A DNA stretch of 56,113 nt. Source: a virus. Lineage: Duplodnaviria > Heunggongvirae > Uroviricota > Caudoviricetes. Where the stretch lies: the IMG/VR virus record IMGVR_UViG_2923334124_000002; one strand, 5' to 3'. The notes below the pieces were generated by a model. The model was not told the DNA's origin. It saw only the letters and a program-made list of their open reading frames with translations, and searched no databases. Both the position numbers and the translations under genes were made by a program. Shown here piece after piece: positions 8,585 through 42,898 of the stretch (position 1 is its first letter; each line of letters begins with the position of its first letter).

Positions 8585-8595
8585 TGGATCCCGTA

Positions 8596-14554: not shown

Positions 14555-14589
14555 CCCCGCAGCTCCGCGATCACTGCGGGATTTTTTTA
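14555..14589 (+). terminator. rho-independent terminator on the plus strand (ccccgcag...ctgcggg + TTTTTTT), antisense to the tail operon
   Basis: GC stem followed by 7 T; lies about 70 nt downstream of a TTCACA-N16-TATAAT promoter-like element. Confidence 0.45.
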
Positions 14590-14593
14590 TGTT

Positions 14594-15915: not shown

Positions 15916-15925
15916 AAACCGGGAT

Positions 15926-16965: not shown

Positions 16966-19900
16966 TCAGCATTCCTCCGTCACGTCGCATGGACAGCATC
17001 ACCGCCTGCACCCGCTGGTCAATCAGCTGCACAAGACTGCCTGCCGCCTCCGCCCCTATCTGTCCGTTAGCCCCGTCATTCTGAATGGCGATGTGGTAGA
17101 CCGGGGAATACACCAGACCGGCACTGCCGTTCATACTGCCCACCGCGCGTACGCCCAGCGAGCCATCCGCCGCCCGGGTCAGGGGCATAATGGCTTCAGG
17201 TCCGGCTTCCCCCATCAGCCCGGCCCCTTTTGCAAACGCAAAGTACGTGGGCGTGTCCACAATGCTGTTGCTGTACGCACTCAGGTTTGCCGAGGTATAC
17301 ACGCCGCCTTTTGCATTGGCCACCGCACCGCCCAGCCAGTCACCAATGCTGCCAATAAATCCTCCCGCACCGGACATACCGTTTGCCGCCGTCTTAATTC
17401 CGTTGACAATCGCAGCATTCATAAGAACTTTTGAGATTTCCTGCAGTACGGATGAGGCCCAGTTGCGCCATTCCACTTTGTTTCCGTTCAGCATCTCCGT
17501 GATGTTATTCACCATCCCTGAGATACCCTCCGTCGCAAGCTGTGCTGCCTGTGAGGCGTAATCGGATGCATTGTCCACCCAGTTACTGAGCCCCTCCTGC
17601 AAGCCTTTCTGCCAGTCCGCACGCTGCGCATCCGATTCGGCATAAAAGGCTGCCTGGTCCTTAAGGCGTTCGCTCAGATACTGCGCGTTCTGTGCCCGTG
17701 CCTGTCTGTAAAAATCCTCACTGATATCCCCGGTCTGATACTGAGACTGAAGGTCCGCATCCTTCTGGCGGAAGCTGTCACGGATCTGCTGCAACTCCCG
17801 CATGCGTTCCCTGGCTCGTTCTCCCTGCCCGTATCCCAGCAGTTCGGCTTCATTTGATGCACGCGCAGCCACATTATCATTCTTCAGGGTCTCTTCCCGG
17901 GATCGCAACTGTTCCCGGATTTTTTGCTGGTCAATCAGGGCCGCGTTACGCAGCAGTTCCTGCTTCTGCATCTCCGTCAGGGTTTTCAGTTCGCCCTGCG
18001 CAGTCTGGTACTTCAGCTTCGCCAGCTCTGTATTCTGACCCGCCAGTGCCAGTTGCTCTTTCTGCTGCTTCAGTAGCCGGGAAAAACTGTCTTCCGCTTT
18101 TTCCGTCTCTGATTTTCCACCCCGGGATTTAGGTTTGTTCGCCTCGTTATTACGCCAGGCTTCCAGAGCATTACTGATATAACGCTGTCTCGCCTCCTGA
18201 TACGAATCCCCCACAAAACCAAGGTCATCCGCCGCATACCCCAGCCGGGCACGCTCTTTTTCCTCCCCCTTCAGTCGGGACAGGGCCAGCTCACGTTCTG
18301 TTTTTGTCAGGGCGCTCTGCTGTTTATCATCCAGGGTGGCCTGCGGCAGCCGTAACGGTACATTCACCAGTCCCTGACGCTGCTGAAGCAGTTCATTCCC
18401 CAGCCCCAGCAGACGGTTGAATTCCGTATGCTGACCGTTCATAACCAGCATGGACTGGTACACCTTATTCTGCTCTGCCGCCTGCTGACGAATTAACGCC
18501 ACACGACGGTCTTCCAGCCCGGCAAGCACATCCTGAATGGACTGCGCTTTTTCCTGCATCTGTGCCAGACGGGACTGCTCAACGGCAAGCTGCTCTGTTG
18601 CCTGAGAAAGCCCTTCCGTCACGGTCTTCACCGATGTCAGATGGTTTATCATGAATCCGTCACCGGTTGTCCAGCCAGGGTTAGCCAGAACATACTGATA
18701 TCCAGCGATTTTTTCCTGCAGGGATTTCACCCGGCTGGCCTGTTCATCAATCAGCCGGTTCTGCTCTGCCAGCGCCGCCCGTGTTCGTCCTTCATTATCT
18801 GAGGCTTCAGGCAAAGACATTGACGGCGTTTTATGCGCGATTTCATCTATCGTCAGTGCATACTGGCGCGCTGACTCCCTGGCCTGCTCCTGATTCTGGT
18901 ACAGCGTATACCATGCTGCTGCCCCCAGCATCACCAGTCCGGGTACGCCACCAACCAGTCCCAACGCACCAGTCATCAGACGTGAGCCCACCGCCGTTGT
19001 ACTGTTCAGCTCATTCTGGGCTGCGGTTCTGGCAGCAATATTTCTGTTCAGGCGTTCCTGTGTGGCCGCCAGACGGGCTTCTGCAGCAATCTGCATCTCC
19101 GTCCCGCGGGCTGCCGCCACAGCCTGCTGTGCACGGTACACGGCTGCCCTTGCCCGCGCCGTGGCAATCTGCGTCCCCCTGAGCTGTGCTTCCGCCAGTG
19201 CCACTTCATTACGTGCTGCCGTCACAAGTCCTGCCGTGGCAGACACCGCTCCGGAGGCCATATTGCCAAAGTACCGGGCAACCCCGACGGCAACCAGCGC
19301 CCCCGCGGCTGTTGCCACATTATCAATATTACCGGCAACACCGTTCAGCACGCCGGAGAGCGTTTTCGTCGCTCCGCTGGCTTCATTCGCGCCACCCACC
19401 CAGGCCATAAAGGCGTTTTCCACCTTTGTGATCCCGTCAGAGACCGTTTCCGGCATGGCGGCATATTCATCACGCAATACCCCCAGCTGGCTGATTAACG
19501 CAGGAACGACTTTATCCGCCGTCAGTTTGCCGTCGTCCGCCATCGCCTTAAGGTCTTTACGGGCCACGCCCATACCCGCAGCCAGTGCACGTACGATCCG
19601 GTCTCCGCTTTCATTGACCGAATTAAATTCCTCACCGCGTAACACACCCTGTGCCAGCGCCTGGCTGAACTGGGTGATCACCGAGCCCGCCTCTGCCGTA
19701 CTGGCACCGGAGATTTTCAGCCCCGTGGAAATGGCCTCCGTCACCTTCAGCACATCATCAGCACTGTAACCATATTCACGCATTGAGGCTGCCGAGCGGG
19801 CAAACAGGGCCGCATTATCTGAAAATGCCGTGCCCGTCCGCTGGCTGATATCCATCAGCACTTTCTGTGATGACGAAAATTCATCGGATGACTGCGACGC

Positions 19901-20200
19901 CTGTTTCAGTCGGGCATTCACGGAACTCCATTCATCGGCCAGAGAAATCAGGTGTCCGGTGGCAAAGGCACCTGCAAATGCCCCCGCCGTTCCGGCAGCT
20001 GAAGCGCGGATTTCCGTCAACTGGCTGTTCAGCTCAGCCAGGGCGCGTCGCTGCACCCGGGCGACTGCGGCAGCCTGACGCCCGCCATTCTGCAGGGTCC
20101 GGTAATATTCACTGCCCATGCGGGAAGCCCGCTGGATCTCCGACTGGAATGACTGCGAATTTGCCGAAATTTTGATAATCAGTTCACGTAACGTCGCCAT
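16958..20200 (-). CDS. H: tail tape measure protein (lambda H-like)
   Basis: 1080 aa; Ala/Gln-rich coiled-coil protein between G/T and M. Confidence 0.9.
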   Translation of the reverse strand: MATLRELIIKISANSQSFQSEIQRASRMGSEYYRTLQNGGRQAAAVARVQRRALAELNSQLTEIRASAAGTAGAFAGAFATGHLISLADEWSSVNARLKQASQSSDEFSSSQKVLMDISQRTGTAFSDNAALFARSAASMREYGYSADDVLKVTEAISTGLKISGASTAEAGSVITQFSQALAQGVLRGEEFNSVNESGDRIVRALAAGMGVARKDLKAMADDGKLTADKVVPALISQLGVLRDEYAAMPETVSDGITKVENAFMAWVGGANEASGATKTLSGVLNGVAGNIDNVATAAGALVAVGVARYFGNMASGAVSATAGLVTAARNEVALAEAQLRGTQIATARARAAVYRAQQAVAAARGTEMQIAAEARLAATQERLNRNIAARTAAQNELNSTTAVGSRLMTGALGLVGGVPGLVMLGAAAWYTLYQNQEQARESARQYALTIDEIAHKTPSMSLPEASDNEGRTRAALAEQNRLIDEQASRVKSLQEKIAGYQYVLANPGWTTGDGFMINHLTSVKTVTEGLSQATEQLAVEQSRLAQMQEKAQSIQDVLAGLEDRRVALIRQQAAEQNKVYQSMLVMNGQHTEFNRLLGLGNELLQQRQGLVNVPLRLPQATLDDKQQSALTKTERELALSRLKGEEKERARLGYAADDLGFVGDSYQEARQRYISNALEAWRNNEANKPKSRGGKSETEKAEDSFSRLLKQQKEQLALAGQNTELAKLKYQTAQGELKTLTEMQKQELLRNAALIDQQKIREQLRSREETLKNDNVAARASNEAELLGYGQGERARERMRELQQIRDSFRQKDADLQSQYQTGDISEDFYRQARAQNAQYLSERLKDQAAFYAESDAQRADWQKGLQEGLSNWVDNASDYASQAAQLATEGISGMVNNITEMLNGNKVEWRNWASSVLQEISKVLMNAAIVNGIKTAANGMSGAGGFIGSIGDWLGGAVANAKGGVYTSANLSAYSNSIVDTPTYFAFAKGAGLMGEAGPEAIMPLTRAADGSLGVRAVGSMNGSAGLVYSPVYHIAIQNDGANGQIGAEAAGSLVQLIDQRVQAVMLSMRRDGGMLSG

Positions 20201-20247
20201 TCACCTTTCTCCGGGCGTAAAAAAACCGCCTCAGCGGTTCTCATCAT

Positions 20248-20529
20248 TCATGACTGTGCTGCGAAGCTCAGCGCGTCTTCCAGCGCCGCAAACGGATCCA
20301 CCTCCGGCTTATCCTCATCCTCGCCCCAGCAGAGCATGGCGTCCTTCAGTGCAACATTCATCCCCTGTGCCCCAAAAACCGCTTTCACGATCTGTGCATT
20401 ACGGATATCCCCGCGCTCATCACCCAGCGGGGATACCCTGTCGAACTCCATCCACATCATCGCCTCGCTCACACTCAGGCTGTGCCGCAGTTCGGATAAG
20501 GTGCGCCCCAGACGGAGCGCAAGTCGCAT
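20248..20529 (-). CDS. T: T portion of the G-T tail assembly chaperone (expressed by -1 frameshift from G)
   Basis: ORF in alternate frame immediately after G; slippery heptamer A AAA AAG at the end of G (plus coordinates 20556..20562). Confidence 0.6.
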   Translation of the reverse strand: MRLALRLGRTLSELRHSLSVSEAMMWMEFDRVSPLGDERGDIRNAQIVKAVFGAQGMNVALKDAMLCWGEDEDKPEVDPFAALEDALSFAAQS

Positions 20530-20552
20530 CAGAAAGCGAATTTCCGGGCGGG

Positions 20553-20927
20553 CTACTTTTTTCTGGCCGACTCTGCATCAGCGATCAGTTCCAGTGCCTG
20601 ACGCAGCAACCGGGCATGTACCGGACCATAGACGGCCAGCACCTGCTCACGGTCGTCCGGAGCGAACACCCGCTGCAGATCCGTATCACACAGGACATCG
20701 CAGAACAGCGTCACATCCGCTTCTAGGTTACGGCGGGTTTTCGCCACCACCGACAGGGTATCGTCATCCTCTCCATCACCATTGAGCACTTCCTGCCACA
20801 GATACCAGGCCTCTGCCGAAGGCTCCCGCAGCACCACGCTGACATTACCCCATTCCGGCACCTTCACCGTTTTATGACGAAACCCTGACAGTCTGGCCAG
20901 CGCCAGCGTTTTCAGATCCTTTTTCAT
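20553..20927 (-). CDS. G: tail assembly chaperone G-like
   Basis: 124 aa acidic protein between the major tail and tape measure genes; ends in a canonical slippery site. Confidence 0.6.
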   Translation of the reverse strand: MKKDLKTLALARLSGFRHKTVKVPEWGNVSVVLREPSAEAWYLWQEVLNGDGEDDDTLSVVAKTRRNLEADVTLFCDVLCDTDLQRVFAPDDREQVLAVYGPVHARLLRQALELIADAESARKK

Positions 20928-20941
20928 GATGACCCATCCCC

Positions 20942-21658
20942 TTATCCGGCGGCTGCGCTCACTGTCACGGTGCATTCAACAGACGTCACACTCTGTGCTT
21001 TCTCTGCCGAATCGGTCACCACGCAGGTATATTTCCCCGCATCAGCGGACTGCGCACCTGGCTTACTGAAGGTGTCTGTCGTCTGCCCGTCAACCGGCTG
21101 ACCATCCTTCTTCCAGGCGTATTTATACGGCGGCGTTCCCCCGTTGGCACTGACTGACATTGTCAGCAGCGCACCTGTATTCACGGTAAGTGTTTTATCC
21201 AGATTTTTCACAAACGCCAGCGGTACCACAAAGGACACCGGTTTGCCTTTCATACGCAGTGAAAACGTTGCTGCCACCACGCCGTTGGTACCGGATGACC
21301 AGGTGTGCTGACGCACTTCCGCCAGGAACTTAAAGCCCTTACCGGACGGAAACAGCACCTTAAACGCATACAACGCGTCATTGTCATAGGCATCACGCAG
21401 GGCGTTCTGGGCCTGATTCAGATAAAAATTACCCGACATGGAAATCTCAGACGACGCCCCCAGACCGTTGATGTTCTCCTGCTCGGTGGAGCAGAGCGTG
21501 GTCACATCAATATCCTGTTTCTGACCAGCGGTGAACTGGACTTCCTTGATGGTGCAGTCCAGGCGCAGATATTCCGCCTTATCCATAGTTTCAGCAGTCG
21601 CCGGGGCAGATGAAATCATCACCTGCGTCAGCTGTGAGCGTTCATACAAAGCAGACAT
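20942..21658 (-). CDS. major tail protein with C-terminal Ig-like (Big_2-type) domain
   Basis: 238 aa; position upstream of G/T; C-terminal ...TVNTGALLTMSVSANGGTPPYKYAWKKDGQPV... Ig-like pattern; true start may be an internal Met. Confidence 0.7.
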   Translation of the reverse strand: MSALYERSQLTQVMISSAPATAETMDKAEYLRLDCTIKEVQFTAGQKQDIDVTTLCSTEQENINGLGASSEISMSGNFYLNQAQNALRDAYDNDALYAFKVLFPSGKGFKFLAEVRQHTWSSGTNGVVAATFSLRMKGKPVSFVVPLAFVKNLDKTLTVNTGALLTMSVSANGGTPPYKYAWKKDGQPVDGQTTDTFSKPGAQSADAGKYTCVVTDSAEKAQSVTSVECTVTVSAAAG

Positions 21659-21724
21659 TCTGCCTCCTGATAATAAAAAACCCGCACGCGGCGGGGTATG
21701 GGTTTTGTAGAAAAAAAGAAAAAG

Positions 21725-31523: not shown

Positions 31524-32014
31524 GTATCCTCCGGATAATAAAAAGCCAGCTTAGTGCACTGAGTGCGGATATATTCCTGCGCCCCTTCCAGCTGCTTCTG
31601 CATTGTCATCAACCGTTCTCTGAGGATGAAATAATCCCGTTCAGCGGTGTCTGCCAGTCGGGGGCCGGTTGCATTATCCACGCTGGAGGTGCCGGTGGCT
31701 TCACGCACGGTACCGGGGCAGGTGGCGTTGACCCGCAGGCGCTTACGACCAGCGGCAACATCAGCGCGCAGAGTTTCATTTTCAGCTCTCGCATCGGCTA
31801 ATTCCTTCGTGTATCTGGCATCAAGCGCAGCGACATCTCGCTGGCGCTGCTGCATGTCAGTAATAGTGGCATTCGCCAGTTTCAGCTCACTGACTTTTTT
31901 ATCGCGCTGCGCTTTGTAGGTGATGGCGTTATCGCGGTAATGATTCAGCCCCAGACTAAGCACACCACAGGCTACCAGCATGACAATAATCACCACACAC
32001 AGAACACGGTTCAT
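31520..32014 (-). CDS. Rz: i-spanin Rz
   Basis: N-terminal TM segment, coiled coil, periplasmic Cys; contains embedded Rz1 frame. Confidence 0.8.
31609..31779 (-). CDS. Rz1: o-spanin Rz1 (lipoprotein embedded in Rz, +1 frame)
   Basis: [17 protein letters not shown] lipobox followed by Pro-rich segment. Confidence 0.65.
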
Positions 32015-32229
32015 ATCACCACCAACGGATTGCCCAGACCAGAACAGCAATGGCCACAATACGAATGGCAAATGCCATTGCCCGAATAAGTTCAGCACTC
32101 ATCTTTTTAAAGTTCACGATTTCAGCGCAATGACCAGTTTTGCCAGCCCATACAGCATCGGAGACACAGCAATACCAACAGCCACCCACTTAATAGCAAA
32201 AGCCAGCGCTCTGCTGATGTCATCAGTCA

Positions 32230-32364
32230 CTGTCACCCCAGCAGCCCCGACGAAGACAACATCACCCAGGCGAGGGACAGAAAAAGAGCAACCAGCATTA
32301 GTGAAAATGAAATACCGACAATCACACACAGGACCTTTGCCGGCGTTATGAGTTTGTCTGACAT
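32230..32364 (-). CDS. hypothetical small membrane peptide (44 aa)
   Basis: MSDKLITPAKVLCVIVGISFSLMLVALFLSLAWVMLSSSGLLG; SD AAGGGG 6 nt upstream; one predicted TM helix. Confidence 0.3.
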
Positions 32365-32366
32365 AG

Positions 32367-32462
32367 CTACCCCTTAATTGCCACAATTAACTGGGATACT
32401 ACCCATAAAAAAGGGATGCTCCAGACCAGCAAAAATTTCCAGTTTGGTAATTGACTAATCAT
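32367..32462 (-). CDS. hypothetical small membrane peptide (31 aa)
   Basis: MISQLPNWKFLLVWSIPFLWVVSQLIVAIKG; SD GGGAG upstream; hydrophobic. Confidence 0.3.
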   Translation of the reverse strand: MISQLPNWKFLLVWSIPFLWVVSQLIVAIKG

Positions 32463-32533
32463 GAGTCGCAACTCCCTAATCAGTTTGCTAAAATCAATCA
32501 AGGCAGCCTCCCATAGCTTACTGCCATAAAAAC

Positions 32534-32566
32534 AAAACCCCGCTTGCTGCCAACAAACGGGGTTTT
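32534..32566. terminator. bidirectional hairpin terminator (aaaaccccgcttgctgccaacaaacggggtttt) immediately after endolysin gene
   Basis: 9-bp GC stem with U-runs on both sides. Confidence 0.5.
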
Positions 32567-32656
32567 TACTTTTATTCACTTAGGTTTTGCCAGTTCACAG
32601 GACTTCGTGTTATCCGCCCGCGTTGGCCAACCTCATTTTTCAGCAAAATATTCTGC

Positions 32657-33190
32657 TTATCTGTCGATTCCCCAGCACGCCAGCGCGCTCTCCTGGTCAC
32701 GACGGAATACCTGACCGTAACAGTTATTTGAGCGAATACGGCAGTCTCTGCCACCGTCCTTAATCCACCAGCGAATCGCTTCGCATGCTCCCCTGCGATC
32801 ACCTGCATTAATTCGTCTGTAAAACGTCGACGGGAAACACTTACCGGGACCAATGTTGTACGGACAGAATGACGCGATCCCCGCTTTCTGGGGTTCGGTC
32901 AATGGCACTTTGATGTTTTTCTCCACCCATGCCAGCGCCTTATCACGCTCAATGGCGTTAACCCGGTCGCATTTTTCCTTCGACAACTTCATGCCCGGAA
33001 CGACAGGTTTGCCATCCACCAGGATGGCACCGCGGCAGATGGTCCAGATACCCGCGCCATCACGGTATGCCGTGGTGTGGTTACCTTCCTTTTCATCCAG
33101 AAACTGGTCGAGAATGTCAGGCGCAGGCGCACCAGCGGCAATCAGCGCCAGAACGGCAGCCGACAGGCCGTATCTGATTTTTGCGTTCAT
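32657..33190 (-). CDS. R: SAR endolysin (phage-21 R-type lysozyme with signal-anchor-release N-terminus)
   Basis: 177 aa; hydrophobic Gly/Ala-rich N-terminal segment LSAAVLALIAAGAP; lysozyme motifs E..EG...TAYRD.AG.WTIC.G. Confidence 0.85.
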   Translation of the reverse strand: MNAKIRYGLSAAVLALIAAGAPAPDILDQFLDEKEGNHTTAYRDGAGIWTICRGAILVDGKPVVPGMKLSKEKCDRVNAIERDKALAWVEKNIKVPLTEPQKAGIASFCPYNIGPGKCFPSTFYRRINAGDRRGACEAIRWWIKDGGRDCRIRSNNCYGQVFRRDQESALACWGIDR

Positions 33191-33358
33191 GGATATTTAT
33201 CAGGATTTATCGGTTTCTGAGCCCTGGATATGTTTATCAGTTCCAGCCTGTTGCCTCAGGCTGCTAACAGGTCGTAAGCGTAAACTGACCGCCGTATGTA
33301 GCCATCAGACGAGAATTGGTAACTTAGACGCCCATCTGATATAGACGGACATCTAAGT

Positions 33359-33784
33359 ATGGAATTACAGGACTGGCGAAAAGAACCTCGTAAAAACTAT
33401 TCGAATGAATTCAAACTTCGTATGGTGGAACTGGCATCACAACCTGGAGCTTGTGTTGCACAGATTGCACGTGAAAATGGCGTCAATGATAATGTTATTT
33501 TCAAATGGCTCAGGCTCTGGCAGAACGAAGGGCGTGTTTCGCGGCGTCTTCCGGTAACGACCTCTTCTGACACTGGCGTTGAATTATTACCTGTAGAAAT
33601 AACGCCGGATGAGCAGAAAGAACCTGTGGCGGCCATTGCGCCGTCTTTATCCACTTCCACTCAGACCAGAGTCAGTGCCAGTTCCTGCAAGGTGGAATTC
33701 CGTCACGGTAACATGACGCTGGAAAATCCATCGCCAGAGCTGCTCACAGTGTTGATCCGTGAACTGACCGGGAGGGGAAGATGA
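33359..33784 (+). CDS. tnpA: IS66-family accessory protein TnpA (orf1)
   Basis: 141 aa; HTH; first ORF of IS66-type element. Confidence 0.8.
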   Translation: MELQDWRKEPRKNYSNEFKLRMVELASQPGACVAQIARENGVNDNVIFKWLRLWQNEGRVSRRLPVTTSSDTGVELLPVEITPDEQKEPVAAIAPSLSTSTQTRVSASSCKVEFRHGNMTLENPSPELLTVLIRELTGRGR

Positions 33785-34131
33785 TCTCACTCCCATCAGG
33801 TACCCGTATCTGGCTCGTTGCCGGCGTTACCGATATGCGTAAATCCTTCAACGGACTGGGAGAACAGGTACAACATGTGCTGAATGATAATCCCTTCTCC
33901 GGTCACCTGTTTATCTTCCGTGGCCGACGGGGTGACACCGTCAAAATTCTTTGGGCTGATGCTGATGGTCTGTGCCTGTTCACCAAACGCCTGGAGGAAG
34001 GCCAGTTTATCTGGCCTGCGGTACGTGACGGCAAGGTATCCATTACCCGCTCGCAACTGGCAATGCTCCTCGATAAGCTGGACTGGCGTCAGCCAAAAAC
34101 ATCCAGCCGTAACTCACTGACAATGTTGTAA
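33781..34131 (+). CDS. tnpB: IS66-family accessory protein TnpB (orf2)
   Basis: 116 aa; conserved IS66 Orf2 pattern; overlapping stop/start with orf1. Confidence 0.85.
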   Translation: MISLPSGTRIWLVAGVTDMRKSFNGLGEQVQHVLNDNPFSGHLFIFRGRRGDTVKILWADADGLCLFTKRLEEGQFIWPAVRDGKVSITRSQLAMLLDKLDWRQPKTSSRNSLTML

Positions 34132-34161
34132 AAAACTCCTGACCGCATTATAAAAACGGTC

Positions 34162-35775
34162 ATGAGTCAGAAATACCTCATTCGCATCGCAGAGCTGGAA
34201 AGGTTGCTCTCTGAGCAGGCTGAAGCCCTCCGTCAGAAAGACCAGCAACTGAGTCTGGTTGAAGAGACGGAAGCCTTCCTGCGCTCTGCACTGACACGTG
34301 CCGAAGAAAAGATCGAAGAAGATGAACGGGAAATAGAACATCTGCGGGCTCAGATAGAAAAACTGCGCCGGATGCTGTTCGGTACCCGTTCTGAAAAACT
34401 GCGTCGTGAAGTTGAACTGGCTGAGGCTCTGCTGAAACAACGTGAACAGGACAGCGATCGTTACAGTGGGCGGGAAGACGATCCTCAGGTTCCCCGCCAG
34501 TTGCGACAGTCGCGCCATCGTCGTCCGTTACCGGCACACCTTCCCCGTGAAATACACCGCCTGGAGCCAGAAGAAAGCTGTTGCCCGGAGTGTGGCGGTG
34601 AGCTGGATTATCTGGGGGAAGTCAGCGCTGAACAGCTGGAACTGGTGAGCAGTGCCCTGAAAGTGATCCGCACAGAACGGGTAAAAAAAGCCTGTACAAA
34701 ATGTGACTGTATTGTTGAAGCACCGGCGCCGTCCCGCCCGATAGAGCGTGGTATCGCGGGCCCCGGATTACTTGCCCGCGTGTTAACGGGAAAATACTGC
34801 GAACATCTGCCACTGTATCGTCAGAGTGAAATCTTTGCCCGCCAGGGTGTCGAACTGAGCCGGGCCTTACTCTCCAACTGGGTTGACGCGTGCTGCCAGT
34901 TAATGACACCGGTGAATGATGCCCTGTACCGTTATGTAATGAACACCCGCAAGGTTCACACTGATGACACACCGGTAAAGGTACTGGCACCGGGTCAGAA
35001 AAAGGCGAAAACAGGGCGTATCTGGACGTATGTCCGGGATGATCGCAATGTGGGTTCGTCATCTCCTCCAGCGGTCTGGTTCGCGTACTCGCCGAACCGG
35101 CAGGGGAAACACCCGGAGCAACACCTCCGCCCCTTCCGGGGTATCCTGCAGGCGGATGCGTTCACAGGTTACGACAGGTTGTTCAGTGCAGAACGTGAAG
35201 GTGGTGCACTGACAGAAGTTGCGTGCTGGGCCCATGCCCGGCGAAAAATCCACGATGTATACATCAGCAGCAAAAGTGCGACGGCAGAAGAAGCCCTGAA
35301 GCGAATCAGTGAACTGTACGCCATCGAGGATGAAATACGGGGATTACCGGAGTCAGAGCGTCTTGCCGTCAGGCAGCAGCGAAGCAAAGTGTTACTGACG
35401 TCGCTGCATGAATGGATGGTGGAGAAGAATGGTACGCTGTCGAAAAAATCCAGACTGGGCGAAGCGTTCAGCTATGTACTGAATCAGTGGGATGCCCTCT
35501 GTTATTACAGTGATGACGGTCTGGCGGAGGCGGATAATAATGCTGCGGAAAGAGCGCTTCGTGCAGTCTGTCTCGGAAAGAAAAACTTTATGTTCTTTGG
35601 CAGCGATCACGGCGGCGAGCGTGGAGCACTGTTGTACGGGCTGATCGGCACCTGCCGTCTGAACGGTATCGATCCGGAAGCGTATCTGCGCCATATCCTG
35701 AGCGTACTGCCGGAATGGCCTTCCAACCGAGTTGACGAACTCCTGCCATGGAACGTAGTACTCACCAATAAATAA
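34162..35775 (+). CDS. tnpC: IS66-family transposase (TnpC)
   Basis: 537 aa; leucine-zipper N-terminus, zinc-ribbon CPECGG, DDE core. Confidence 0.9.
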   Translation: MSQKYLIRIAELERLLSEQAEALRQKDQQLSLVEETEAFLRSALTRAEEKIEEDEREIEHLRAQIEKLRRMLFGTRSEKLRREVELAEALLKQREQDSDRYSGREDDPQVPRQLRQSRHRRPLPAHLPREIHRLEPEESCCPECGGELDYLGEVSAEQLELVSSALKVIRTERVKKACTKCDCIVEAPAPSRPIERGIAGPGLLARVLTGKYCEHLPLYRQSEIFARQGVELSRALLSNWVDACCQLMTPVNDALYRYVMNTRKVHTDDTPVKVLAPGQKKAKTGRIWTYVRDDRNVGSSSPPAVWFAYSPNRQGKHPEQHLRPFRGILQADAFTGYDRLFSAEREGGALTEVACWAHARRKIHDVYISSKSATAEEALKRISELYAIEDEIRGLPESERLAVRQQRSKVLLTSLHEWMVEKNGTLSKKSRLGEAFSYVLNQWDALCYYSDDGLAEADNNAAERALRAVCLGKKNFMFFGSDHGGERGALLYGLIGTCRLNGIDPEAYLRHILSVLPEWPSNRVDELLPWNVVLTNK

Positions 35776-35835
35776 GCGTCAATACGGTGCTCCGTTGACG
35801 CTTACAACAGGTCAATACAATCATGAGGATTATTT

Positions 35836-36108
35836 ATGGACAATAACACCATTTCTCTACAGGAGTTGCTCGACAGCATTTCCAGGCTTCGGGAAGACGT
35901 GAATACCCTTACCGTCGCCTTCTCATATCTGGCATTCTCAATTCCAAGGGAACAGATGCAATCAACGCTGGCATCAATCCAGTTTGAATCATGCAATCCC
36001 AAATGGTCTCAGGAACAACAAGACTCTTTCAGGCGGCTTGCTGTATTACTGGATGAAAAATATGCTGGTAAAATTACCATTTCGGCGGACTCTTCAGAGA
36101 ACCCGTAA
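35836..36108 (+). CDS. hypothetical protein (90 aa), convergent with and overlapping the 3' end of 36074..36418
   Basis: good SD GAGGA 5 nt upstream of ATG; no family recognised. Confidence 0.4.
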   Translation: MDNNTISLQELLDSISRLREDVNTLTVAFSYLAFSIPREQMQSTLASIQFESCNPKWSQEQQDSFRRLAVLLDEKYAGKITISADSSENP

Positions 36109-36418
36109 TTATTCCCGGTAGTTTTCCTCTGTAGGTTATCAACACATCCTGCGCCTCTAAAATTACGGGGCGCTTTTCCGGCGACTGCTCATCCCCTTCA
36201 CATAACCCGGCAGCAACATCCAGGAAGACCTGTCTGATGCTCCTTCTGGCTGCTGCCTCATAAAACTCCAGCGCGGCACCTTCAACACGGTCCAGCGAGA
36301 TGTCCAGGTCAAAAATTTCACCGTCAAAGCGTTTTTTGTCCCGTAACGCTAAAGTTACCGTAACTTTATTCTCAAAATTGCGGATCCCTTTCACAATCAG
36401 TTCATAGTTTTGAGTCAT
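36074..36418 (-). CDS. hypothetical protein (114 aa) translationally coupled to holin; occupies the position of ydfR in Qin
   Basis: ATG 7 nt after holin stop with SD GGGGAGAG; soluble, no motif recognised. Confidence 0.5.
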   Translation of the reverse strand: MTQNYELIVKGIRNFENKVTVTLALRDKKRFDGEIFDLDISLDRVEGAALEFYEAAARRSIRQVFLDVAAGLCEGDEQSPEKRPVILEAQDVLITYRGKLPGIITGSLKSPPKW

Positions 36419-36422: not shown

Positions 36423-36638
36423 TTACTCTCCCCGTGCCGCCTTACGACGGTCCTCTCTGATTTTGAAATACAGGTTAGTCAGATATGTCAGCAGCCCAAA
36501 CAGCAGACTCCCCAGCACGCCTATTGCCGCCCACTGAGACGGGGAAACCCTGTCCAGCAACTGCAGGAACCAGTAGCCCGTTCCCACCGCTGACGTGGTG
36601 TATGACACACCTGTTGTGATTTTTTCCATCTGGTACAT
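36423..36638 (-). CDS. S: class II holin / pinholin (phage 21 S21-like) with dual start
   Basis: 71 aa; ...[51 protein letters not shown] closely matches remembered S21. Confidence 0.8.
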
Positions 36639-36788: not shown

Positions 36789-38657
36789 TTATGATGATGC
36801 CGGTGCATTTATCTCCAGCACCAGACTTTCTATCTCAACGCCATACGTTGCATTTTTGGTAATATCCGTCAGCGTCAGCGCATTCAGCCCCAGTGTCAGA
36901 CTGTCTTTTATGACCTGGAATGCCGGGCCAGCCACTCCATTCAGTTTCGGAGTAACCGTGGCACTGCCGGCGGTGAACACCAGCTCCAGCGTCTGCCAGT
37001 CGTTACTGTAATTCCCGAACTCGCCCAACTTTGTGTTTCCTGCTTTCTTGTGATGCATCAGATTCAGTTTGCCGTCTGTGGTCTGGGTGAAGAACGACAT
37101 CAGGAACGGGTTACCAGTCCCGGTCATCGCCACGACGTCAGGTAACGCTACATCGGTATACAGATAAATTCCCAGACCGAACTGATTGTTGGTCAGTGCG
37201 CCTGACAGTCGAAACTTACAGCTCAGTCTGCCACCCCGTGTCAGCAGGGAGACTGCGTCATCCACCGGGCGCGTCAGGGACCAGGCTTTATTGCTCTGCT
37301 TGGTGATCTTAAATACACCATCTGACAACTGAATTCCGCCATTCTTAATGCTCCAGCCCTGCGCAGCAGCATCTCCGGCTGTCGGCAACAGGGAGATTGT
37401 GCGTACGGATGCATCTTCAGACGGCCCCGATGGCGTGTCGCCGCCGGGCGAGGGTTTGATTTCCGGTGCCTTACCACTAATGAAGGCTAAGGTGCGACCG
37501 GCTACGTTCAGAATAGCAGTTGCCATACGATCGGGAATAATGCCACGACGCGCCCATGAGCTGAAATGCGTCGGGCGATTTGATGATACCCAGTTTTTGT
37601 TCGTTCGGGATGCCGAACCGTAATAACCAGACCCGGCAATATCAGGATCTTCTGACGGGTTGTTTGTCGGTGTATTAACTCCGCTACCATCGGTCATAAA
37701 GGGAACAAAATAAATCTGCTGGGATTCTTTACCTTTATATGCACCATATACCACTTCATATTGCGTACCGTGTTCTTGTTTCCACGCGTATGTCGTGTCG
37801 CCACAAATCCAGGGGACTGATGCCGGACTTCCACCGTGACACTGCGCCGCCAGCCCGGCAAGGTCAGCACGGAACTGCTGTACCATTGCAAGAAATGCTG
37901 CTGGCTGCTGGGCGTAACTGGCATTCGTCATATCGAATTCCCCCTGCATCCAGCATATCGCCAGCAAAACGTTTTTCGGGTTTTTCTGCAATGCTGCCTT
38001 CGTGCGGAAAAGCAGATCCTGATATAACGGCTTACCCACTCCCCAGCGAGCCGAATCCTGACTGGCCCCCGTGGACTCGCTGAATGTCCCCTCCGTGCCC
38101 TGGGTGAATGCCGAACCACCACGACAGCATGGTACCAGCAGGATCCCCGCATTATTAGGGATATACGGAAGCAGTTTTTTGGCAATATGTAAGCCCTGTC
38201 CGACACAGCCGTACTGCCCTTTGCTCAGGTCAGCCCGGGGATGGTTAATCGTACTCATATCCTGAACATCATGCAGACAATGGTCAGCAGGAATGATGTC
38301 GTTAAATACGCATACTTCACCACCGGGAGTCACTGTGTTACGACGGGCCAGTTGCTTAATGCGCGGATGGGGCGCATCGTATGAATCCGGAAGCGGAAGC
38401 CCTTCACCGTAAGCCATGGCATTGGATTGCCCGGCCAGTACGATGACGTAGTACCACTCCGGCTCAGTTGCACCACTGACGACCACATCACCTTCTGCTG
38501 CAATCGCCTGCATCAGGGTATAAGGGGTTATGGCCACCGGACTACCAAACGGCTGCCAGCCCTCTTTCAGTTTATGTGTCAGCTTTTCCGCAAGATCTGA
38601 CGGCGACGCCGCCCTGACAACATCATAGTGTTTAAATGCCATGGTTCTTTCCACCAT
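36789..38657 (-). CDS. nanS-p: NanS-p-type sialate O-acetylesterase (SGNH hydrolase) typical of Stx-phage late regions
   Basis: 622 aa; GQSN catalytic block; sits immediately upstream of the holin, as the esterase gene does downstream of stx in Stx phages. Confidence 0.75.
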   Translation of the reverse strand: MVERTMAFKHYDVVRAASPSDLAEKLTHKLKEGWQPFGSPVAITPYTLMQAIAAEGDVVVSGATEPEWYYVIVLAGQSNAMAYGEGLPLPDSYDAPHPRIKQLARRNTVTPGGEVCVFNDIIPADHCLHDVQDMSTINHPRADLSKGQYGCVGQGLHIAKKLLPYIPNNAGILLVPCCRGGSAFTQGTEGTFSESTGASQDSARWGVGKPLYQDLLFRTKAALQKNPKNVLLAICWMQGEFDMTNASYAQQPAAFLAMVQQFRADLAGLAAQCHGGSPASVPWICGDTTYAWKQEHGTQYEVVYGAYKGKESQQIYFVPFMTDGSGVNTPTNNPSEDPDIAGSGYYGSASRTNKNWVSSNRPTHFSSWARRGIIPDRMATAILNVAGRTLAFISGKAPEIKPSPGGDTPSGPSEDASVRTISLLPTAGDAAAQGWSIKNGGIQLSDGVFKITKQSNKAWSLTRPVDDAVSLLTRGGRLSCKFRLSGALTNNQFGLGIYLYTDVALPDVVAMTGTGNPFLMSFFTQTTDGKLNLMHHKKAGNTKLGEFGNYSNDWQTLELVFTAGSATVTPKLNGVAGPAFQVIKDSLTLGLNALTLTDITKNATYGVEIESLVLEINAPASS

Positions 38658-38902
38658 CTGAAAAATGATTCTTTAAAATACCTGACATGTAATACAGAAA
38701 AAACACAAAACCATACCTTAAATAAAAACCTCATCATCAAGCAGATATGCATGGATAAACTACAAGACGAGATATAAACCACCCTGCATTTAAATAAACA
38801 ATAAACAACATCAGAAAAATAATTCTGCTCTATGGTTTACAATCAAAAATATCATTTATACTTTTCAGAACATCACCAGCAAGGCATAAACAAGGAAACT
38901 AA

Positions 38903-39238
38903 ATGAAGTGGATTGTGATTGATACAGTTATCCAGCCATCATGCGGAATATCTTTTTCAGTCATATGGAGTAAAATAAAATTAATAATCTGGTATCAATC
39001 GGATGCTTTCTTACCTCCTGAAAGTATATTTACACTGACTCACACAGGCATCATGCTCAATAACAAAGTGCTACCTGTAACCATTTACAACGTAGTACCA
39101 TTCAATAAAACATTCTGGAATTTAATCAAAAACAGCCAGGAATGCCCTACAAATACAGATAACGTATTGAATGAATGCTTTAATAACCGTTGCACTCTGC
39201 AAATATGTCCTTATGGACTAAAACAACAAAGTCCATAA
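38903..39238 (+). CDS. hypothetical AT-rich cargo ORF (111 aa, Cys-rich C-terminus)
   Basis: SD AAGGAAA 7 nt upstream; low GC versus flanks; no family recognised. Confidence 0.35.
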
Positions 39239-39685
39239 GGAGTTTACTCACATCTGACAAAATCAATATAAACAGCCCCTCCGGAGAGGGGCTGGAGAGT
39301 GGCGCTATGTGCCATTGCATGGTGCCGGGTGCCTCCCGGTGAATTCAGTACCAGCACCTGAATCCGCGATTATCCCATATACCTACTCGCTGATTGCCCC
39401 TCCGCACAGGGGGATTCACCATGCCAGTTTCTTTTAACAAACTCCCCGCAAACCAGACAACAATCAACCGCCTGAATTGTGAAGTATTTAAAAATTTCTC
39501 CCGCTAACTGATACCCGGCTAACAGTCTGGCGTTTTCTTTTTCAGCAACGGGAAAGCAACAACCACCACACCCGCCACCAGCACACCGTCAGCCAGCACT
39601 GACATTATCCGGCTGCAGCAATGCCATTCACAAAAACAGTAAGCAATCACTTTTTACCGTAACCGGTGATAATCCAGATATGTAT

Positions 39686-40042
39686 CTACCCCAGATGAGT
39701 AATCCGAAGTTCATCCATACCACAGGTCCTGGCTATTCTGTTGTACTCCTGAACAAGAGTAAATAATTCTGAATTAGCCACCATGAACTCATCGCAAACC
39801 CTCTGTATAGCATCACTATTCAGAATAATAACGTCTCTTCCCGAAAGACGATCAGGAGTACAGAACAAAACTGTCAAACGGCTGAAGGCCTTTGCTCGTG
39901 CTGCATTGACTATATCAATACGCTGCCTAAGGATGAAACACCCCGACGCCTCATCAATATTCACTCTACCCACACCATATGAATGATAAATATTTAATGC
40001 TGAAAAAACCATTAGACCGTATAACAAACACTCAATCAACAC
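39686..40042 (-). CDS. hypothetical ORF (GTG start in track; possible ATG start at 40012)
   Basis: ORF only; weak translation signals. Confidence 0.2.
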   Translation of the reverse strand: MLIECLLYGLMVFSALNIYHSYGVGRVNIDEASGCFILRQRIDIVNAARAKAFSRLTVLFCTPDRLSGRDVIILNSDAIQRVCDEFMVANSELFTLVQEYNRIARTCGMDELRITHLG

Positions 40043-40149
40043 TTAACAGAACTTTTATTTTTGACAAACATATAATATTTTCAACAATATCCTGAGCCAG
40101 GTATATTTCAGTATAAGGCTCTGCCGGAAGGAATCTGGAAGAATGAATA

Positions 40150-40226
40150 TGGCGCGCTGTACTGGATTCGAACCAGTGACCGATTGCTTAGAAGGCAATT
40201 GCTCTGTCCGGCTGAGCTAACAACGC
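40150..40226 (-). tRNA. argO: tRNA-Arg (anticodon TCT)
   Basis: cloverleaf-compatible 77-nt sequence gcgttgttagctcagc...ccttCTaagc...ttcgaatcc...gcgcgcca read on minus strand. Confidence 0.8.
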
Positions 40227-40326
40227 TGAATACCGATAATGGACCGCCATCGGGGACCCGCCCCCGCACCAACAACCCTGTTATCGTGTCGTCTGCTCTT
40301 CCTGATAAGCTAATGGCGGTTTGTGA

Positions 40327-40402
40327 TGGTGGCCCTTGCTGGATTTGAACCAGCGACCTGGCGATTATGAGTCGCTCGCTCTCACCACTGAGCTAAAGGG
40401 CC
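40327..40402 (-). tRNA. ileZ: tRNA-Ile2 (anticodon CAT, lysidine-type) or tRNA-Met
   Basis: ggccctttagctcagtggtgagagc...actCATaatcg...ggttcaaatcc...gggccacca; closely resembles remembered ileX/ileZ. Confidence 0.8.
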
Positions 40403-40451
40403 GGGAGCAGAATAATAATGGTGCGTAATTAATTCTGCAATCTCATCCGTT

Positions 40452-41501
40452 TCAAACGATTAAACCCTGAACTTCCCTGACTGTCTGCTCAAAACGTCCG
40501 GTCTCCAGCTCAACGCCAATCGCACGACGCCCGAGCGCCAGTGCCGCTTTTACCGTTGAACCTGAGCCCATAAAAAAATCTGCAACCAGGTCACCCGGAC
40601 GACTGCTTGCGCTGATTATCTGCTGCAGCATTTCTGCCGGTTTTTCGCACGGATGTTTCCCGGGATAGAACTGCACCGGTTTATGTGTCCACACATCCGT
40701 GTACGGCACCTGCGCCGTCACACCAAAATACCGCCGCAGATGCTTATATTCACTCTGCAGCTCCACATACTGCCGGTTCAGTGACGTATACGTATCCACC
40801 AGCTGGTGGTGGGGCTTTTCCAGTTCACCGCGCTGATGTTTCTCTTCTGCCACCCGGGCAAACAGCGACTGTAATTTCAGATAATCGCTTTCGTTCGGTA
40901 GCTGCCACTGACTGGCACTGAACCAGTGCGACACCATGTTTTTCTTTCCTGTGGCATCTGCAATCTGTTTTGCCGTTATCCCCAGGGCCGCGCGCGCATC
41001 ACGAAAGTAAGAAATCAGCGGGGCCATCACATGCTGTTTCAGTGCACTGCCCTTCGCCGCATACCCGGCATCTTTCGGACGATACGGCCCCTGATAATGT
41101 TCCGCGAACAGAATGCGCTCTGTGGCGGGGAAATACGCCCGCAGGCTTTCCTTGTTGCATCCGTTCCAGCGTCCGGACGGCTTCGCCCAGATAATATGGT
41201 TCAGCACACTGAAGCGTTCACGCATCATGATTTCGATATCAGATGCCAGGCGATGACCACAGAACAGGTAAAGACTTCCGGCAGGTTTCAGCACCCGCCA
41301 GAACTGCGCCAGACACTGGTCCAGCCACTTCAGGTAATCATCGTCGCCCTTCCACTGGTTATCCCAGCCCTCAGGCTTCACTTTAAAGTACGGCGGGTCC
41401 GTGACTATCAGGTCAACAGAATTTTCGGGTAACGACCGGATAAATTCCAGGCAGTCGGCGTTGATTAACTCACAACTGGATATTTTTACAGTATTAGCCA
41501 T
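40452..41501 (-). CDS. DNA methyltransferase (N6-adenine/N4-cytosine class, DPPY motif), orphan
   Basis: 349 aa; VTDPPYF motif IV and C-terminal FxGSGST AdoMet motif; position between Q and tRNAs as in Stx phages. Confidence 0.85.
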   Translation of the reverse strand: MANTVKISSCELINADCLEFIRSLPENSVDLIVTDPPYFKVKPEGWDNQWKGDDDYLKWLDQCLAQFWRVLKPAGSLYLFCGHRLASDIEIMMRERFSVLNHIIWAKPSGRWNGCNKESLRAYFPATERILFAEHYQGPYRPKDAGYAAKGSALKQHVMAPLISYFRDARAALGITAKQIADATGKKNMVSHWFSASQWQLPNESDYLKLQSLFARVAEEKHQRGELEKPHHQLVDTYTSLNRQYVELQSEYKHLRRYFGVTAQVPYTDVWTHKPVQFYPGKHPCEKPAEMLQQIISASSRPGDLVADFFMGSGSTVKAALALGRRAIGVELETGRFEQTVREVQGLIV

Positions 41502-41652
41502 AGATCAATAAGCACTTCTCTGATAGGCTCATACCGCTTTTGCGCAAAGCAGATGGGCCTGAGGTTTGCTTGTGACCCCAACGCATGAGCAGATGGCTGG
41601 TGGGTGCCCCTAACACCCACCAGCCGCCCATTTACCACAAATAAAAAAGCCT

Positions 41653-41850
41653 TCACTGCGGAAGGCGTCTGTAACAACCGAACTGATAGTCTGCCAGACC
41701 CGCCATAACCAGCTGGGTCAGTATTAACTGGCAGCGTTCGCGTGAAAGGTAAGTATTCTGCGCAATCTCCCCGGCTGTCGCCGGTTCGGTGACGCTTAAT
41801 TCATTAAACACCACTCTGGCGGTTTCTGTCATATCCTGCTGTTTCAGCAT
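41653..41850 (-). CDS. hypothetical small protein (65 aa) between Q and methyltransferase
   Basis: internal start MLKQQDMTE with SD AAGGGA; followed by hairpin terminator. Confidence 0.4.
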   Translation of the reverse strand: MLKQQDMTETARVVFNELSVTEPATAGEIAQNTYLSRERCQLILTQLVMAGLADYQFGCYRRLPQ

Positions 41851-42076
41851 GTCTTTTTCCCTTTTCCGGTTAACGTGACACACCAATAACTCTTGTCGAA
41901 AAAGCCAGCAAGCTGAAAGACAGGTATTCACCGCCACCAGCGCGTTTACTGTACTGACGCGATTTCAGTCATAAAAAACCCGCCAGGCGGCGGGGTGTAA
42001 AAAATCTTCTAACGTCAGGCATAAAACGCCCATCGTTAGAGCAAATTTACCACAGATTCGGGAAAAATCAACAACA

Positions 42077-42898
42077 CTATCGCGTTACCCTCTTTAACTG
42101 CCGCTCCGCCCATGCCTCTTCAATGTCAAACCGAACCACCAACGTATCGTAAAAGCGTTTCACTGATTTTTTCCACGTATCAAGCGTGATAGCACTCGTC
42201 ACTTTGCATATGGCATTAAATGCCTCCGTTGATGGTAGTCTTTCACAGCCACGACCACCACAACGCTGGCAGTCTCTGATAACAGGCATACCACGTTTTA
42301 CCGACTCTTCACGATGAATGGCGACACCACGCCCACGGCAGTCTTTACAGGCAGTGGAAATCTCCCCCTTCCCTTTACATTCAGGACAAGAAACTTTCAC
42401 CACCTCCCGAATTTTTTTCCATTCTTCCCAGTAAGACGGATACACACCTTTCGTACACTTTGCCCATACTGGCGGCTTGCCATCCGGATACTGAACCTTG
42501 TTTGTAAAAACTTCGCCTTCAATAAATTTTTCCCCTCGGCAACAGGGGCACTGCTTTTTACTCGCTGCGCTGCGGGCATAATCCTCAAAAGCGTACGAAG
42601 CCATAATGCGCATCACTACCGGTTTTATTTCTGCCGGAAGTTTTCTCAACGCCGCCACACGATCGCACCGACTGAGTGCATAATCTGCCAGTAATTCTGT
42701 TGCCCGCGCCCTGTCATTCATACTGATGCCCATTTTCCCCAGGAACGCAGAAAACCCCATCTCAGCCCGATTCTGTGTCATGCCCTGCGCGGCCATCACA
42801 TCAGTGATACTCAGCGCATCTTTCGACGTTGAGGCCGATGCATCAGTCAGGCCGGGGGATTTTGGGGAGTAGTATTTCGGTAAATCTTCCAGTTTCAT
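42077..42898 (-). CDS. Q: late-gene antiterminator Q (zinc-binding type)
   Basis: 273 aa with several CxxC pairs; located between rusA and the late/lysis region. Confidence 0.7.
   Translation of the reverse strand: MKLEDLPKYYSPKSPGLTDASASTSKDALSITDVMAAQGMTQNRAEMGFSAFLGKMGISMNDRARATELLADYALSRCDRVAALRKLPAEIKPVVMRIMASYAFEDYARSAASKKQCPCCRGEKFIEGEVFTNKVQYPDGKPPVWAKCTKGVYPSYWEEWKKIREVVKVSCPECKGKGEISTACKDCRGRGVAIHREESVKRGMPVIRDCQRCGGRGCERLPSTEAFNAICKVTSAITLDTWKKSVKRFYDTLVVRFDIEEAWAERQLKRVTR

Follow-up and report, generated by a model that had tools for sequence, protein, structure and literature searches.

RESULTS AND DISCUSSION

A complete ISEc23 element in the lysis cassette of a lambdoid prophage

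The window, by which we mean the entire 56,113-nt stretch of DNA that was analysed, belongs to a lambdoid prophage that is integrated into the ompW gene of an E. coli strain of the ST131 type. The lysis genes of this prophage lie on the minus strand, and between those for the holin and the endolysin R there is an insertion sequence (IS) whose own genes lie on the plus strand, antiparallel to late transcription (Table 1). From one end to the other, all 2532 bp of the IS agree at 100% identity with copies in many genome and plasmid contexts, which carry the RefSeq/PGAP label 'IS66-like element ISEc23 family transposase'.

Table 1. Coordinates of the ISEc23 insertion and of the phage features discussed in the text
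Feature	Coordinates	Strand	Evidence or remark
Rz (i-spanin)	31520..32014	-	PF03245, E 7e-51; coordinates per annotation of relatives
Rz1 (o-spanin), embedded in Rz	31609..31794	-	phrog_3198 Rz-like spanin, E 3e-31
Endolysin R (lysozyme), intact	32657..33190	-	PF00959; P21 lysozyme 3hde, E 2e-16
Left copy of 8-bp target-site duplication, AACAGGTC	33266..33273		Single copy in IS-free relatives
ISEc23 (IS66 family), complete, 2532 bp	33274..35805	+	Full-length 100% identity to copies annotated ISEc23
Left terminal inverted repeat, GTAAGCGTAAACTGACCGCCGTAT	33274..33297		Matches right repeat at 20/24 positions
tnpA, 141 aa, helix-turn-helix accessory protein	33359..33784	+	PF01527 HTH_Tnp_1, E 5e-12
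tnpB, 116 aa, IS66 Orf2-like accessory protein	33781..34131	+	PF05717 TnpB_IS66, E 1e-36
tnpC, 537 aa, IS66-family DDE transposase	34162..35775	+	PF03050 DDE_Tnp_IS66, E 9e-98
Terminator-like hairpin, 10+4 bp stem, then UUAUUGGU (U-rich)	35764..35805	-	Folding
Right terminal inverted repeat	35782..35805		Matches left repeat at 20/24 positions
Right copy of 8-bp target-site duplication, AACAGGTC	35806..35813		Perfect match to left copy
90-aa phage ORF, hypothetical protein in relatives	35836..36108	+	phrog_2411, full length, E 1e-58
ydfR / DUF1327, between 90-aa ORF and holin	36074..36418	-	PF07041, E 7e-43
Class II (P21 S type) holin, 71 aa, pinholin-type	36423..36638	-	PF04971, E 2e-32; phrog_9876; coordinates per annotation of relatives
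Late-gene antiterminator Q (Q82 type)	42077..42898	-	PF03589, E 6e-51

The terminal inverted repeats of the element, each of 24 nt (GTAAGCGTAAAC... versus GTAAGCGTCAAC...), agree at 20 positions; both open with GTAAGCG, and GTAAGCGT is seen at both ends. The inverted repeats of the IS66 family are reportedly ~20-30 bp long and open with 5'-GTAAGCG. The three-gene layout tnpA-tnpB-tnpC that has been described for the family (PMC6778807) is also present: the stop codon of tnpA and the start codon of tnpB overlap in the sequence ATGA, and tnpC begins 30 bp past the tnpB stop. Besides its DDE domain, TnpC carries the zf-IS66, LZ_Tnp_IS66 and IS66_C domains (PF13005, PF13007 and PF13817). The DNA of tnpA is identical to that of the gene annotated for WP_000422741.1 in L002, and annotated ISEc23 has three genes with DNA identical to those of the window (WP_000422741.1, WP_000624722.1 and WP_000080195.1). 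Moreover, the annotated copies, both on E. coli chromosomes and on plasmids, share the ends and the 8-bp target duplication of the window element, 8 bp being the length known for the family (PMC6778807, citing Machida et al. 1984). The element itself is without difference from annotated ISEc23, and the insertion site alone is new. Given that identical copies occupy many polymorphic sites, the copy in the window may, on this indirect support, be capable of transposition.

The initial annotation of this DNA, made from the sequence alone, had described a complete three-ORF IS66-type element of 2532 bp with an 8-bp duplication; its coordinates prove to be exact, and all three proteins have Pfam matches. 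It had made the claim hinge on the terminal repeats and the target duplication, and both are confirmed, with 100% identity to the annotated ISEc23 copies.

Empty site and age of the insertion

An empty site was rebuilt from 500 bp of the left flank, one copy of AACAGGTC and 492 bp of the right flank, and it is matched at 100% across all 1000 bp in many E. coli ST131 genomes. In JJ1887, the flanks directly adjoin and AACAGGTC is present once; the comparison with IS-free relatives, which had been proposed as a check, thus upholds the insertion. Setting the IS aside, the window differs from the JJ1887 prophage only by one SNP (at position 20259) and by being without the ISEcp1-blaCTX-M-15 insertion of JJ1887; the insertion of the IS is, therefore, very recent. 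The exact left junction was sought in 5426 complete E. coli genomes, the GTDB representative genomes, JGI metagenomes, IMG/VR and GenBank phages, and occurs in none of these collections.

Some assemblies collapse or misplace copies of an IS, and this exact junction was found nowhere else; we therefore considered whether the insertion might be an assembly artefact or a chimera. Nothing positively supports such a reading, however, and the ends of the element are precise. The 8 bp that flank it on both sides without mismatch are present only once in the relatives; target duplications are not produced by misassembly. Additionally, six other genomes carry analogous insertions (described later), each with its own duplication. 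We regard an artefact as scarcely credible.

Position of the element within the lysis cassette

ISEc23 sits in the 105-bp spacer between R and a 90-aa ORF on the opposite strand, and breaks no coding sequence: it lies upstream of both, at a distance of 83 bp from R and of 22 bp from the start codon of the 90-aa plus-strand ORF. All of the lysis genes, their start codons and the 83-bp upstream region of R are unaltered by the insertion; what has been displaced is the upstream region of the 90-aa ORF (phrog_2411). The placement given in the initial annotation, between the holin region and the endolysin gene, thus holds, with the refinement that the immediate neighbours are R and the 90-aa ORF, and that ydfR also intervenes on the holin side. 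The antiparallel course of the IS genes and the displacement upstream of the 90-aa ORF are points that the annotation had not raised.

With regard to R, residues ~7-24 form an Ala/Gly-rich segment of moderate to weak hydrophobicity (Kyte-Doolittle ~1.6-1.8), preceded by K4 and R6, and the catalytic triad is spaced E35-8-D-5-T. Both features of the sequence fit a SAR endolysin, for which R is a candidate. The cassette shares with that of phage 21 a holin of the P21 S family, the E-8-D-5-T lysozyme triad, the weakly hydrophobic N-terminal segment, a match to the solved P21 lysozyme and the nesting of the spanin genes. Unlike the phage 21 cassette, that of the window is interrupted by ydfR, by the 90-aa opposite-strand ORF and now by the IS, and it has small ORFs between R and Rz.

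As the initial annotation had pointed out, R, Rz and Rz1 are separated by the element from the late promoter and the holin, such that transcription across the IS is now needed. The separation extends further than that annotation had it, since all of the late operon beyond R, ~33 kb with the genes for terminase (large subunit at 27990-29651), head and tail, is likewise cut off from the late promoter; any polar effect would abolish virion production, and not lysis alone.

Late transcription and the candidate obstacles in its path

The organization of the region is that of a Q-dependent lambdoid late operon: there is a Q gene followed by a putative promoter-proximal terminator, and the minus strand carries every gene for lysis and morphogenesis. 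Just downstream of Q there are GC-rich terminator-like hairpins with T runs (41994-41979 and 41666-41649), and a pattern scan finds approximately five terminator-like hairpins that the late transcript would form in the stretch from Q to the holin gene. Between Q and the first hairpin, the pattern scan gave no convincing candidate for the late promoter. In relatives without the IS, the late operon already contains genes on the opposite strand, namely, an iraM-like gene, the 90-aa ORF and a YlcI/YnfO gene. In the prophage of the window, late transcription has to pass two genes of opposite strand that lie ahead of the cassette or inside it.

Inside the IS, the pattern scan did not pick up any intrinsic terminator in the direction of late transcription, but folding later revealed a bulged hairpin at the right end (Table 1), the bulge in its stem presumably being the reason that the scan missed it. 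The hairpin is located where late transcription enters ISEc23, and its 86-nt context folds with -29.7 kcal/mol (z -4.5 versus shuffles); we treat this strong hairpin as a candidate obstacle to late transcription, and not as evidence of termination. Beyond it, the antisense transcript of the IS is untranslated, has 28% C versus 25% G and contains several C-rich, G-poor 80-nt windows that resemble Rho loading sites. Furthermore, the IS genes are transcribed toward the oncoming late transcript.

These features could make the IS a strong polar block, a reading that extends the view taken in the initial annotation. Late transcription would then end inside the element, and the holin would be made but R, Rz/Rz1 and the head and tail proteins would not. 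Induction would be lethal to the cell but would yield neither lysis nor virions, which in effect would disarm the prophage. Such an outcome is favoured by the hairpin with its U-rich tail at the IS end that faces the incoming polymerase, by 2.5 kb of untranslated antisense RNA with its Rho-loading-like windows, and by the convergence of the two transcripts. The prophage also carries a second IS, ISEc12 in lom; with both elements it is ~10% longer than the inferred IS-free genome, and the extra length could hamper cos packaging. Nevertheless, Q-loaded polymerase is processive across tens of thousands of nucleotides (PMC9388147), and it resists both intrinsic terminators and polarity when so modified (PMC9388147, PMC12360218). 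The same transcript has, moreover, already passed the hairpins that precede the holin gene, and the lysis genes and the sequences immediately upstream of them are all intact. On balance, we consider a strong polar block possible but unlikely.

The element might instead bring an outward promoter of its own, or form a hybrid promoter with the flank, such that R or the 90-aa ORF is expressed independently of the phage late promoter. There is one combination that would suit this, in which TTGACG in the right inverted repeat is separated by an 18-nt spacer from AATCAT in the flank (35795-35824, plus strand) and is directed toward the 90-aa ORF. However, promoter-like sites are about as frequent as in shuffled controls (4 found versus 3.0 +/- 1.9), the predicted start of this one falls past the ribosome-binding site of the 90-aa ORF, and none is directed at R near the left end of the IS. 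The host would also be expected to suffer if an endolysin that is secreted were made constitutively. We think an outward promoter very improbable.

The reading that we prefer, with a probability of roughly 0.6, is that ISEc23 recently transposed into the spacer between R and the opposite-strand ORF, that its effect is transcriptional and that it is mostly read through, such that late gene expression is reduced or delayed. The insertion would have followed the IS66-family route, in which the DDE transposase TnpC, with TnpA and TnpB as accessory proteins, would make staggered 8-bp cuts at the target; thereafter, its sole effect on the phage would be on transcription. After induction, polymerase from the late promoter, modified by the Q82-type antiterminator, would have to cross 2.5 kb of untranslated antisense IS sequence, and would reach R, Rz/Rz1 and the terminase, head and tail genes only beyond it. 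Read-through is plausible because of the Q82-type antiterminator and because some five terminator-like hairpins are already passed before the holin gene. For the same reason, namely, that Q-modified polymerase is terminator-resistant and already crosses several such hairpins upstream, expression of the genes downstream of the IS is most likely to be reduced or delayed rather than abolished, and we would expect lysis to be retained, or to be weakened, but not to disappear. The 90-aa opposite-strand ORF would be cut off by the IS from its upstream region. The interpretation given in the initial annotation is supported in part; its statement that the insertion probably makes lysis defective is not supported, given the intact lysis genes, the type of antiterminator and the hairpins already passed.

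ISEc23 is a known mobile element, and its insertion into the holin-endolysin interval of an ST131 prophage is an ordinary event. Its significance extends little beyond strain-level annotation, in that it marks a very recent transposition in an ST131-type prophage, and it may alter how well the prophage lyses or spreads. It does, however, offer a natural test case of how far Q82-type antitermination overrides an antisense IS in a late operon.

Other insertions in late regions

The interval between holin and endolysin genes has been hit independently by ISEc23 in no fewer than six further lambdoid prophages, and the element is found there both ways round. The strains with ISEc23 between a class II holin and a lysozyme gene are 884, 21714, F8704-2, RM14721, SCPM-O-B-7615 and EC931. 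As in the window, each of these insertions is flanked by a perfect 8-bp duplication, and the elements are 99.9-100% identical. Five of the six fall within ~45 bp at the 5' end of ydfR, which is disrupted or truncated as a consequence, and that of EC931 lies elsewhere in the interval; the insertion in the window, in contrast, is ~575 bp from the ydfR cluster, in an intergenic spacer, and disrupts no gene. Among the seven duplications (AACAGGTC, GGATCCCT twice, TCCCTTTA, AGTTACCG, CCAGTTCG and CCATTCCA), no target consensus is evident. An apparent orientation bias of the insertions in this interval was rejected as an artefact of query design, since a control query with the ends reversed gave three in the other orientation.

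Five independent insertions crowd into ~45 bp where ydfR begins (its 5' end), and the very same 8-bp target has been used both ways; the lambdoid holin-endolysin interval could, therefore, be a hotspot for ISEc23. Insertions there, including that in the window, are perhaps kept because the holin is no longer coupled to the genes for endolysin and virion, so that the prophage is disarmed and the host gains. We view this as improbable. Were it true that IS insertions in the interval recurrently silence prophages, our knowledge of prophage domestication would be extended modestly. A literature search on ISEc23 in prophage lysis regions, on the ST131 ompW prophage and on IS insertions between holin and endolysin genes found no experimental data on such insertions.

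In isolated lambda-like phages (among the GenBank phages), ISEc23 adjoins the side tail fibre gene, which we take to be at the far end of the lambda late operon; at that position, the element is uninformative on polarity.

IS elements are also found in the late regions of Stx2a phages and prophages, in which IS629/IS1203 and ISEc8, the latter of the IS66 family, occur in the region from Q to the holin gene; the paper establishes their occurrence there, and not that the phages concerned remain functional (PMC10462455). These elements likewise lie inside the Q-dependent late unit, upstream of lysis genes (PMC10462455). In the Stx2a prophages, however, the IS is upstream of the holin gene, in or beside nanS-p, whereas in the window it lies between the holin and endolysin genes, and there are no stx genes.

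Identity and recent origin of the insertion

The IS66-family element that interrupts the lysis region is enclosed by two copies of the 8-bp sequence AACAGGTC (33266–33273 and 35806–35813), which delimit exactly 2532 bp. It opens with GTAAGCGTAAAC and closes with GTAAGCGTCAAC in reverse complement; 20 of the 24 terminal positions match. Three genes lie on the plus strand: tnpA (141 aa; HTH_Tnp_1), tnpB (116 aa; IS66 Orf2-like), whose start overlaps the tnpA stop as ATGA, and tnpC (537 aa), which carries DDE_Tnp_IS66 (E 9e-98) together with the zinc-finger, leucine-zipper and C-terminal domains of the family. All defining features of the IS66 family that could be tested are present, and the initial annotation, which had described a complete IS66-type element, proved exact in its coordinates, three genes and 8-bp duplication. 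Among 5426 complete E. coli genomes, places spanning at least 80% of the element are present in 2488, and the entire 2532 bp recur, end to end and at 100% identity, on chromosomes and plasmids in many unrelated surroundings; for these full-length 100% matches the label is always 'IS66-like element ISEc23 family transposase', alongside TnpA and TnpB. Judged by these annotated copies, rather than by the ISfinder reference, the element is identical to ISEc23.

An artificial empty site of 1000 bp, comprising the left flank, one AACAGGTC and the right flank, gave 100% full-length matches in many genomes, many of them named ST131/O25b:H4 (e.g. JJ1887 and JJ2434). In a direct comparison with the prophage of JJ1887, positions 1–16766 and 35806–56113 are 100% identical, and 18175–33273 contain a single mismatch, at 20259. 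In JJ1887, both IS flanks overlap by exactly the 8 bp; IS-free relatives present an uninterrupted site with AACAGGTC once. On these comparisons, positions 33274–35805 represent a true insertion and a very young one: the sequence of the IS is that of other copies, its duplication is perfect, and on both sides it is flanked by sequence identical to IS-free relatives. The exact junction, as one aligned piece, was found neither in the complete E. coli genomes nor in GTDB representatives, JGI metagenomes, IMG/VR or GenBank phages; the insertion is a private, recent polymorphism, with both the IS and the type of prophage already known. IS insertions in prophages are commonplace.

Position within the late operon

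The window holds a lambdoid prophage, running from a Rha-family regulator gene to an integrase gene, with all late genes on the minus strand. Gene order (see table) is based on the ORF map, Pfam, PHROGs and the RefSeq annotation of the almost identical JJ1887 prophage.

Features of the prophage, listed along late transcription, and further ISEc23 copies
Feature	Coordinates	Strand	Remarks
Integrase gene	54983–56113		
Q antiterminator	42077–42898	−	PF03589, Q82 type
Small ORF, then DNA methyltransferase	40452–41501 (methyltransferase)		After Q
Two tRNA genes			After methyltransferase
iraM-like anti-adaptor gene	38903–39238	+	Against late genes; between tRNA genes and esterase
SASA/NanS-p-like esterase	36789–38642	−	
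Terminator-like hairpins	41994–41979, 41666–41649, 39850–39832, 39294–39273, 36706–36678	−	Late strand
Class II P21-type holin	36423–36638	−	
ydfR/DUF1327	36074–36418	−	
90-aa ORF	35836–36108	+	phrog_2411, function unknown
ISEc23	33274–35805	+	Between 90-aa ORF and R
Endolysin R	32657–33190	−	
Small ORFs	32016–32579	−	phrog_3246, phrog_6632, function unknown
Rz	31520–32014	−	
Rz1	31609–31794	−	Embedded in Rz
HNH endonuclease, terminase, head and tail genes		−	After Rz/Rz1
Tape-measure gene	16958–20200	−	Intact
istA	8596–10137	−	Second IS
istB	7835–8584	−	Second IS
Tail-fibre assembly gene	4013–4546	−	
Tail-fibre assembly gene	3455–3982	+	
Rha-family regulator gene	1–558		
ISEc23 in L002 (884)	5877–8408		
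ISEc23 in L006 (21714)	4377–6908		
ISEc23 in L003	4567–7098		
ISEc23 in L004	4468–6999		
ISEc23 in L007	4099–6630		
ISEc23 in L008	4104–6635		
Tape-measure region in L001 (JJ1887)	939–7427		Gene split by ISEcp1-blaCTX-M-15

The Q-to-holin region (36789–42898) has the Shiga-toxin-phage layout of Q, methyltransferase, tRNA genes, NanS-p-like esterase and holin, albeit without stx genes. R fits a SAR-type endolysin: Pfam assigns it a lysozyme fold (PF00959), the solved structure of phage 21 lysozyme is a match (3hde, E 2e-16), the triad is E35-8-D-5-T, and the N-terminus is an Ala/Gly-rich, moderately hydrophobic segment preceded by Lys and Arg. Several small ORFs, partly hydrophobic by eye and possibly encoding membrane proteins, separate R from Rz, at the place of an antirepressor gene in some Stx phages.

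The IS has entered the 105-bp spacer that separates R from the 90-aa ORF; its distance to the start codon is 83 bp for R and 22 bp for the ORF, in both cases on the upstream side. It breaks no coding sequence, and its genes are antiparallel to the lysis genes. The 90-aa ORF, itself within the lysis cassette, shares 35 bp with the 3' end of ydfR. As first proposed, the IS geometrically separates R, Rz and Rz1 from the holin and the late promoter, but that proposal omitted the downstream genes: ~33 kb of late-operon DNA, with the terminase, head and tail genes, likewise lies beyond the IS, and thus a genuine polar block would eliminate virion production together with lysis. The accompanying suggestion of defective or read-through-dependent lysis is plausible, although it was made without regard to strand orientation, Q dependence or these downstream genes.

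Late transcription across the IS

A bulged 10+4-bp hairpin occupies the initial 34 nt of the IS as read on the late strand and is followed by UUAUUGGU; the 86-nt hairpin context folds at −29.7 kcal/mol (z −4.5). The antisense IS transcript would be 2.5 kb long and untranslated, with 28% C versus 25% G and several 80-nt windows in which C reaches 30% or more and G stays at or below 18%; moreover, IS transcription converges with late transcription. These features would favour a complete block of late transcription, which we nevertheless consider the less likely outcome: the late operon is under a Q82-type antiterminator, five terminator-like hairpins are already present on the late strand between Q and the holin, and three opposite-strand genes are already embedded in the late operon of IS-free relatives, such that lysis-gene expression always needs a terminator-resistant polymerase. 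The hairpin nearest the holin, between it and the esterase gene, has 12 pairs followed by TTTTATTGTT and precedes the holin start codon by ~40 bp; the hairpin count for the Q-to-esterase region is 7, versus 3.1 ± 2.2 in shuffled controls. [quoted passage not shown] We favour, with a probability of about 0.6, late expression beyond the IS that is reduced or delayed rather than completely blocked. IS elements, including the IS66-family ISEc8, have been recorded in the Q-to-holin region of Stx2a (pro)phages, as occurrence only (PMC10462455).

That the IS drives expression of neighbouring genes is improbable. A hybrid promoter-like site at its right end (35795–35824; TTGACG from the inverted repeat, an 18-nt spacer and AATCAT from the flank) points at the 90-aa ORF, but a consensus scan found no excess of promoter-like sites over shuffled sequence, and none leading from the left end into R.

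Further ISEc23 insertions and other mobile elements

Junction searches revealed six further independent ISEc23 copies in the holin–endolysin interval of other lambdoid prophages, 99.9–100% identical and each with its own perfect 8-bp duplication. Strains 884 and 21714 carry theirs in the ST131 prophage that the window also represents, both at one 8-bp target (GGATCCCT; window 36382–36389) and in opposite orientations; the others are in O39:NM F8704-2 (TCCCTTTA), RM14721 (AGTTACCG; in Qin), SCPM-O-B-7615 (CCAGTTCG) and EC931 (CCATTCCA). Judged by the search table, three related farm isolates appear to share the RM14721 configuration. Flanking-sequence comparison places five of the six at the 5' end of ydfR, inside a stretch of ~45 bp where, from the listed insertions, there may be a local ISEc23 hotspot; no consensus is evident among the target duplications. 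An apparent orientation bias was an artefact of how the query was built; a reversed control query removed it.

A second IS, of the IS21 family and labelled ISEc12 in relatives, lies at ~7750–10320 and splits a lom-like outer-membrane protein gene; its insertion is older than that of ISEc23, as JJ1887 also has it. With both elements, the prophage is ~10% longer than the inferred IS-free genome. Besides ISEc23 and the single mismatch, the only difference from JJ1887 concerns the tape-measure gene, intact here and split by ISEcp1-blaCTX-M-15 there; sister strains thus show independent hits on the same prophage by different mobile elements. Finally, ~1900–4550 resembles the decayed remains of an invertible tail-fibre segment, with two tail-fibre assembly genes in facing orientation, adjoined, in the JJ1887 annotation, by a truncated recombinase gene and tail-fibre gene fragments.
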